From Eledone cirrhosa (taxonomy: Eukaryota): 64,000 nt of DNA. The translations under genes and the position numbers were made by a program. Of this stretch, positions 3,637 through 4,077 are shown in pieces. The stretch lies in contig OZ024742.1 in NCBI GenBank assembly GCA_964016885.1, positions 193,502,001-193,566,000 on the forward strand. The letters run 5' to 3'. Each line of letters begins with the position of its first letter. Position 1 is the first letter of the stretch. The notes under the pieces are model-generated. The model did no database searches and was not told the origin of the DNA. It worked only from the letters and a program-made list of their open reading frames with translations.

Positions 3637-3829
3637 ACGAAAGAGGTGTGGTAAGGAACCAGATGGACCATAACGCACCAGAGTAACTCAATGCTTAGGA
3701 TAGTAGAGTGTGTAATAGGAAAACGTTTAAGCCCTACGGCAGAGCTGAAGCCGTTTCGACGGTTATTTCTGGACTAGAAATAGCCGTCAAAACGGCTTGA
3801 GCTCTGCCGTCGGTGTTAATCTTTTTCCT
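3637..3829. mobile_element. Asymmetric palindromic mini-element, family X copy 1
   Basis: Hairpin centred on TTTCT-ggact-AGAAA with long left and short right arm; TA-flanked; homologous to 3890-4077, 52767-52962 and 54031-54256. Confidence 0.75.
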
Positions 3830-3889
3830 ATATATATATATATATATATATATATATATATATATATATATATATATATATATATATAT

Positions 3890-4077
3890 AGGAACCAGTA
3901 AGACCCCGACAGCTGAGCTCAAGCCGTTTCGACGGCTAATTCTGGAATTAGCCGTCGAAACGGCTTGAGCTCAGCTGTCGGGGTCTTACTGGTTCCTATT
4001 ACCCACTCTACTACCTCAAGTATTGAGTACTTTGGTGCGTTATGGTCCACCTGGTTCCTTACCACATTTCCTTCGTT
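3890..4077. mobile_element. Asymmetric palindromic mini-element, family X copy 2
   Basis: ggaaccagtaagaccccgac...gtcggggtcttactggttcc inverted core plus a one-sided extension; flanked by (TA)n on both sides. Confidence 0.8.

Follow-up and report, generated by a model that had tools for sequence, protein, structure and literature searches.

A lopsided hairpin repeat in TA microsatellites and its most likely origin, the 3' end of Hydra-type Penelope-like elements

The window, which is the whole stretch of 64,000 nucleotides that was analysed, is AT-rich animal DNA, rich in (TA)n and LINE-type reading frames. Its host is presumably an octopus, to judge by a SINE sequence and by the LINE types, which are similar to those given for Octopus vulgaris (PMC13282606). 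Positions 6153-47044 are occupied by a dense nest of young LINE-type elements, some in tandem, with an open RT frame of 805 aa at 42344-44761. Family X is a repeat of 190 bases, a lopsided hairpin seated in TA microsatellites. Four copies (c1 to c4) and two remnants had been reported in a first-pass annotation, and all were present in the window (Table 1). Two other inverted structures were observed. Segment 3573-3636 and its inverted partner 4342-4413 bracket c1 and c2, and a mini fold-back of 40-50 nt lies beside (TA)n at 4650-4700 and 63174-63212, the two being 97% alike.

Table 1. Positions of the family X copies, their parts and the remnants in the window
Feature	Position	Strand	Remarks
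Copy c1, older subfamily	3637..3830	-	tail left 3637-3717, arms 3716-3830
c1 short-arm end, (TA)31	3829-3890		
Copy c2, whole unit	3889..4077	+	short arm, centre, long arm, tail
c2 short arm, inverted	3889..3945	-	without tail; stops at inner TTCC/TA site
c2 hammerhead 3' half	3957..3983	+	GAAA, 6-bp stem III, near-palindromic loop, GTC triplet, GGGG
c2 inner TTCC/TA site	3993..3998	+	17 nt past GTC triplet
c2 bulged hairpin	4005..4031	+	ACTC-TAC..GTA-TT-GAGT, then ACT; common to Hydra-type PLE tails
c2 one-sided 80-nt tail	3997..4077	+	(TA)n at end
Copy c3	52769..52962	-	tail left 52769-52848, hairpin 52814-52840, short-arm core 52921-52947
Copy c4	54031..54255	+	core 54135-54161
Decayed remnant with tail	~58760..58915	+	outer arm like second subfamily of reads
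Decayed remnant	~60655..60786	+	centre and part of tail deleted

Each copy is a hairpin with two arms of about 55 nt. The long arm extends into a tail of 80-81 nt in 4/4 copies, and a tail was found on one end only, the inverted repeats thus being non-terminal with one arm recessed by this length. The short arm breaks off into (TA)n at TTCC/TA in all four copies, as had been described in the first-pass annotation, and the tail end, likewise in TA repeats, is the second fixed outer end. Insertions sit in (TA)n in the window copies as well as in sequencing reads, and target duplications are unreadable inside (TA)n. In 4/4 copies, a 5'-truncated sequence in inverted orientation meets its partner head to head. 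A direct partial tandem (pseudo-LTR) was seen in 0/6 window copies, and no same-strand joint was present among the 12 joints listed from reads or contigs. Differences in the central loop between copies had been noted, and the centres were indeed unlike in 4/4 copies; that of c4 is enlarged by short repeated pieces of the arms (~54080-54127). The arms of c2 are identical at 46/46 sites, and those of c1 are unlike at 8/46. The whole unit folds as a single hairpin (z -19 and -23), and none of 200 shuffles folded as well. Rfam searches of family X gave microRNA-type hairpin matches alone, all below threshold. Five further palindromes of 350-440 nt were observed in the window (5492-5932, 49765-50119, 61917-62300, 62591-62977 and 63248-63600), and in 5/5 one arm adjoins (TA)n (gap of at most 7 nt) and the other is extended.

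Family X has the GAAA, stem III and NUH triplet of a type I hammerhead. The CUGANGA core and stems I and II are missing, and a mirror arm stands in their place. The core GAAAC-stem-GTC-GGGG is found at 3957-3983, 52921-52947 and 54135-54161, a decayed version lies at 3789-3812, and each of these has its mirror. The hammerhead 3' half claimed earlier was borne out: with a 6-bp stem III it was reached by 4/5000 shuffles on either strand, in a test whose motif was picked after being seen. No exact CTGANGA was present inside any window copy. A strict hammerhead scan of the window gave two sites, not above shuffles, and a loose pattern gave eight sites compared to a mean of five in shuffles. Rfam gave no hammerhead match on c3, and it likewise missed the complete motif at 58081. 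By eye, a second subfamily of reads keeps five of the stem base pairs. An 8-nt repeat in each arm makes GAAAC part of a competing 6-bp tetraloop hairpin, so that the hammerhead likeness is perhaps partly accidental. The idea that the remnant at 58760-58830 is a minus-strand parent with an intact hammerhead was rejected, since it needs several deletions, leaves stem I unpaired and is countered by reads of the same subfamily, which have the usual arm there. No RT or endonuclease reading frame was linked to family X in the window or in the loose ends of reads (30 letters each). As both a canonical hammerhead and a linked gene are missing, family X was not classed as a member of Hydra. Minimal or decayed hammerhead motifs were observed beside (TA)n at 61813-61851, 60250-60295 (minus) and 3596-3625, and a decayed hammerhead, recognized by eye, is accompanied by a partial tandem at 5212-5932.

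A Hydra-type remnant of a Penelope-like element (PLE) lies at 54440-56203 on the minus strand. It contains a hammerhead (54514, minus), a piece of the endonuclease (55598-55939) and the same bulged hairpin as in the tail of family X. It is placed head to head with a second Hydra-type remnant (57736-58140, plus, hammerhead at 58081) around inserted sequence. The endonuclease fragment gave 191 relatives in phmmer, which by eye are alike to Hydra-clade C-termini; weak GIY-YIG matches were obtained for 2/12 of the relatives. Word-based protein searches and Pfam gave nothing for the two PLE remnants, and Atlas gave nothing for 55601-55939. A broken PLE frame of another type was observed at 51128-52260 (minus); it contains a GIY-YIG piece (Atlas score 0.96) and, by eye, RT-like motifs.

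Ten of the phmmer relatives were aligned, and a search with this endonuclease alignment led to 28 loci (L001-L028) in seven assemblies, 16 of them from one. These loci lie on (TA)n-rich contigs of seven public bacterial bins and are likely animal host DNA; no Hydra-type loci were found in viral contigs or phages. Their 3' ends carry, in order, a hammerhead, an inner TA-rich site, a bulged hairpin, a tail and (TA)n. Altogether 37 hammerheads were found in the 28 loci, of which 14 have the hairpin tail, 14 reach (TA)n before the hairpin and nine do neither. Two short head-to-head units with intact hammerheads and one tailed arm were found at L012:2488-2768 and L012:3170-3590. A 105-nt palindrome with perfect ends and a TA-rich flank is shared by L002:2661-2765 and L010:2047-2151, and neither a hammerhead nor a tail was seen in it.

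The bulged hairpin was searched for with covariance models. Model R1 was built from three outside Hydra-type loci, the seeds being chosen after the likeness had been seen, and it ranked c3, c4 and c2 at the top of the 64 kb with E-values of 0.0012-0.0014. A broader model, R2 (24 matches), found the three copies at an E-value of 0.003. R1 also matched c1 weakly (3681-3719, E 1.3), the remnant at 58760-58915 (58826-58863, E 0.3-0.8 with the hairpin models), the tail of the palindrome at 62591-62977, the short family at 48865-49680 and the Hydra-type end in the window. A plain hairpin descriptor gave six places in the window compared to a mean of 0.13 over 100 shuffles. Covariation of the helix was seen among the outside loci: in 5/7 pairs both partners are altered (22 cells, 0/500 shuffles), counted on an alignment that had been fitted to the hairpin model. 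Family X has A-U in place of the outer G-C pair. The distance from GAAA to the end of the hairpin is 75 nt in family X and 75-97 nt in 12 picked loci; family X is more compact from the triplet to the hairpin (25 nt versus 36-61 nt in the outside loci) and from the triplet to the TA site (17 nt versus 30-59 nt). In the isolated tail the bulged hairpin lies 0.9 kcal/mol above the best fold, with a pair probability of about 0.2, and in the monomer the probability is 0.5-0.9.

Two further elements with this hairpin were observed in the window. The palindrome at 62591-62977 has a hammerhead-like 3' half, and its tail matches the hairpin models with E-values of 0.01 (R1) and 0.6 (R2). A second short family with a (TA)n end is found at 48865-49078, 49466-49680 and 52453-52579; it shares the bulged hairpin except for the inner stem, which is different, and has R2 E-values of 1e-5 and 1.5e-4 and two directly oriented copies 600 nt apart. 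No hammerhead was seen upstream in this family, and the hairpin, although compared here in Hydra-type loci, is therefore perhaps not specific to Hydra.

Four of 23 sequencing runs, from two organisms (A and B), were compared with 52765-52926. The best share for organism A was 0.32, and it is perhaps not the window's own species. Family X was found in 24,240 of 12.47 million RAD reads and in 19,000 of 16.5 million contigs of organism A, and in 39 contigs of organism B. RAD sampling is biased, so the copy number is stated only as thousands to tens of thousands, a range that we infer from these counts. Crossings from the short-arm end into (TA)n were seen in 3509 raw reads. All 12 head-to-head joints listed are opposite-strand, with one side at 52896-52908 and the partner cut at 52807-52869. 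Such joints could be later deletions. The c3 centre is spanned by few raw reads, and short-read sequencing probably under-represents hairpin molecules. Beyond the c3 centre, reads frequently enter unique AT-rich sequence (1058 behind 52906, median 56 letters), in which the consensus of organism A agrees with a contig of organism B at 25/30 letters. The second subfamily departs behind 52896 (1251 reads). At 21 nt before GAAA it carries a 7-mer that resembles the core except for two mismatches, possibly a hammerhead relic, and by eye stem I is absent. One run presumed to be RNA contained a single 38-letter match to family X. Motifs of family X gave no match in metagenome contigs, viral contigs or prokaryote genomes.

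Established features of family X are its anatomy, a pair of fixed outer ends, a junction that varies, high abundance and a tail hairpin common to Hydra-type loci. A PLE origin as such is highly probable, and the most likely identification of family X is as a Hydra-type PLE 3' end. The Penelope-type origin proposed in the first-pass annotation is supported by the hairpin model of Hydra-type tails and by the matching order of the 3' end. Several findings count against the Hydra-type reading: the lack of BLAST similarity between family X and the Hydra-type remnant in the window, the lack of a linked RT or endonuclease frame, the more compact spacing and the suboptimal fold of the bulged hairpin in the isolated tail. 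We favour, with moderate confidence, that the unit consists of two truncated PLE ends set head to head in (TA)n by two-site priming of a Hydra-type enzyme. The GIY-YIG endonuclease would cut (TA)n on both strands. One 3' end would then prime at the end of the tail and the other at the inner TTCC/TA site by about three bases of TA homology, and microhomology to TA at the short-arm end, as claimed before, is supported. Both cDNAs would halt 8-20 bases upstream of GAAA, and their ends would anneal at short self-complementary letters and copy each other, at times with template jumps, as may have occurred in c4. In the available text of PMC11167929, an anole PLE is described in which both target strands are cut and extended, RT begins at two internal sites, the tail is the stretch between the two start sites, and an element with a dead hammerhead inserts in vitro. 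Two start sites of this kind would give a fixed inner break without a landing site for a snap-back.

The source of family X had probably lost the 5' half of its hammerhead, or the half had decayed, before the family spread, and its RNA would then not self-cleave. We guess that this source was a short non-coding RNA rather than a full coding element. A small stem-loop together with half a ribozyme is likely the minimal signal for copying. In 3/3 young copies the arms share the same common variants, which would not necessarily be expected of two separate RNAs and weighs to some degree against this reading.

The asymmetric break itself is real, as had been noted, but its interpretation as the landing site of a snap-back did not hold up as well. 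The break is better read as a second RT start, because outside Hydra-type copies end there too (14 of 37 hammerheads), several of them downstream of their own endonuclease gene, and the site therefore needs no snap-back. The sharing of common variants by both arms of each young copy would be consistent with a tail-primed cDNA that folds near TCTGGA, copies back to TTCC/TA and jumps to (TA)n. Self-priming of this general kind has already been proposed for PLEs on the basis of palindromes at inverted junctions (PMC3846280, available text). We nevertheless consider it unlikely for family X. Unpaired letters at the centre lie on the long, tailed arm in c1 and c3, as a snap-back would predict, but on the short arm in c2 and on both arms in c4. 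The short arm thus at times has letters missing from the long arm, which favours two cDNAs over one snap-back, and the 12 joints listed have an arm longer than the partner could supply. Folding at a pre-existing stem II, the starting point of the earlier proposal, was contradicted: the 5' strand of this stem exists solely as the mirror. Neither that strand nor an exact CTGANGA was found in the longer forms over 38-48 nt upstream of GAAA, among the 19 loose ends listed out of a set with 354 further ends. The arms do not stop at stem II either, but go a variable 0-6 letters beyond it. Mirroring of copy-private mutations, a check set beforehand, was observed for 0/4 arm differences in c2-c4. Two of these four are rare (~1%) and two are not among the variants listed. 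Three sites that vary between c2, c3 and c4 are mirrored in both arms, and each of them is common in the population, at 11-52% of depth. As the mirrored sites are common variants and the private ones are unmirrored, a single source type must have supplied both arms, and mutations that arose afterwards were not mirrored.

The same pattern, read as mirrored subfamily variants and unmirrored private sites, would suit a PLE-derived hairpin unit that is transcribed and copied whole from few source loci, the centres being later palindrome deletions. Long palindromes are prone to deletion. However, the centre of c4 gained repeated pieces with no loss, copies only 2-4 differences apart have unlike centres, and the head-to-head units of L012 each have their own junction. 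Copying of the whole unit is accordingly rather improbable.

MITEs and Helentron-associated elements are short, are present in high copy numbers, have long inverted repeats and use TA-rich targets, as family X does. The fixed outer ends, the variable centre, the high copy number and the 8-nt arm repeat would fit internal-deletion derivatives with transposase-binding repeats, and the hammerhead likeness would then be due to chance. A non-autonomous DNA element of either type is very improbable here. In family X one arm is recessed by 80 nt, so that the inverted repeats do not occupy both termini, the arms meet centrally and no link to a transposase was seen in the window; in addition, the tail contains a match to the RNA hairpin that covaries in PLE loci, and five other palindromes in the window have one arm on (TA)n. 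The earlier view of family X as a retro-made look-alike of MITEs agrees with the PLE-locus hairpin in the tail and with the head-to-head units in L012. Long perfect hairpins near microsatellites can form in chimeric reads and the c3 centre is crossed by few raw reads, but a fold-back artefact of the library or assembly is hardly credible, as the arms are unlike at 0-8 of 46 sites and both the short-arm end and the head-to-head joints recur in independent runs from two organisms.

Returning to an origin from Hydra-type ends by two-site priming, a further-reaching reading is put forward tentatively. Family X may be a specialised, non-autonomous parasite of PLEs, about 140 nt long, that has lost ribozyme activity, has kept only its cis-signals (the half hammerhead, the inner and outer start sites and a conserved hairpin bound by the Hydra-type enzyme) and is inserted as a hairpin by double target-primed RT. 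It would then reach thousands to tens of thousands of copies and stand for a class of retro-made 'MITEs' which, in repeat annotations of marine invertebrates, are listed under DNA elements or as unknowns. Family X is in any case a warning that some (TA)n 'MITEs' may be retro-made. According to the available text of the mechanistic papers on PLEs, it is an open question how inverted copies and one-sided tails arise, and counting the thousands of short young head-to-head junctions could separate the two-primer from the snap-back model. The 140-nt unit could also serve directly as a minimal template in the PMC11167929 in vitro assay, and the covarying tail hairpin is a DNA-level marker of Hydra-type ends that needs no reading frame.

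The literature search found no paper on family X, MITE-like PLE hairpin units or the tail hairpin; Repbase, Dfam and subscription papers lay outside it, and the family is perhaps already catalogued. The word 'hairpin' is absent from the available main text of PMC8557442 and PMC3846280. Motifs of family X gave no match in the available supplements of PMC8557442 and PMC13282606, where lines of 70 letters can split a motif. Head-to-head copies, tails and self-priming are already in print for PLEs, and the bulged hairpin and the tiny half-ribozyme form are not described in the text available. The supplement of PMC13282606, as far as available, gives 6.83% PLE for Octopus vulgaris, and inverted pLTRs are noted in the available part of PMC8969392.

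Among the known systems, Hydra-clade PLEs are the closest. According to the available text of PMC8557442 they target (TA)n and have a hammerhead near the 3' end; inverted 5'-truncated copies and one-sided tails are described, and one Hydra family has such an inverted copy. The same bulged hairpin was recognized by eye in 3/6 of the consensus ends available from that paper (Hydra-2_Amil, Hydra-2_Ajap and, imperfectly, Hydra-1_Crog), where it lies within a stretch of 62-87 nt after a TA-rich site. Hydra elements are 2-3 kb long and code for RT and GIY-YIG, whereas family X is 190 nt long with no linked gene. They have whole hammerheads with a stem II plus loop of 11-24 nt; in family X the 5' core is missing and stem III is longer. 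The tail is 80-81 nt in family X and about 60-75 nt in tailed Hydra-type loci.

The pseudo-LTRs of Penelope/Poseidon and Naiad resemble family X in the head-to-head inverted 5'-truncated copy, the one-sided tail, the palindrome at the junction and the two start sites (PMC3846280, PMC11167929 and PMC8557442, available text), but their tail is 30-40 nt and their units flank a gene. The octopus Naiad ends available in PMC8557442 show a likeness, by eye only, to the family X letters GTCGAAAC..CCGT-GGGG. The hairpin is absent from these ends, and a Naiad origin was therefore placed below Hydra. The Naiad label 'HHR_half_core' in the available text of that paper denotes widely spaced core halves, with no half missing. 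Non-LTR retrozymes are short, non-coding elements with a type I hammerhead that have been proposed as non-autonomous partners of PLEs (PMC7229834; bioRxiv 10.64898/2026.07.22.740005; available text). They are arranged as head-to-tail tandems, their hammerheads are complete and active, and they have circular RNAs, whereas the units of family X are joined head to head and carry half a hammerhead.
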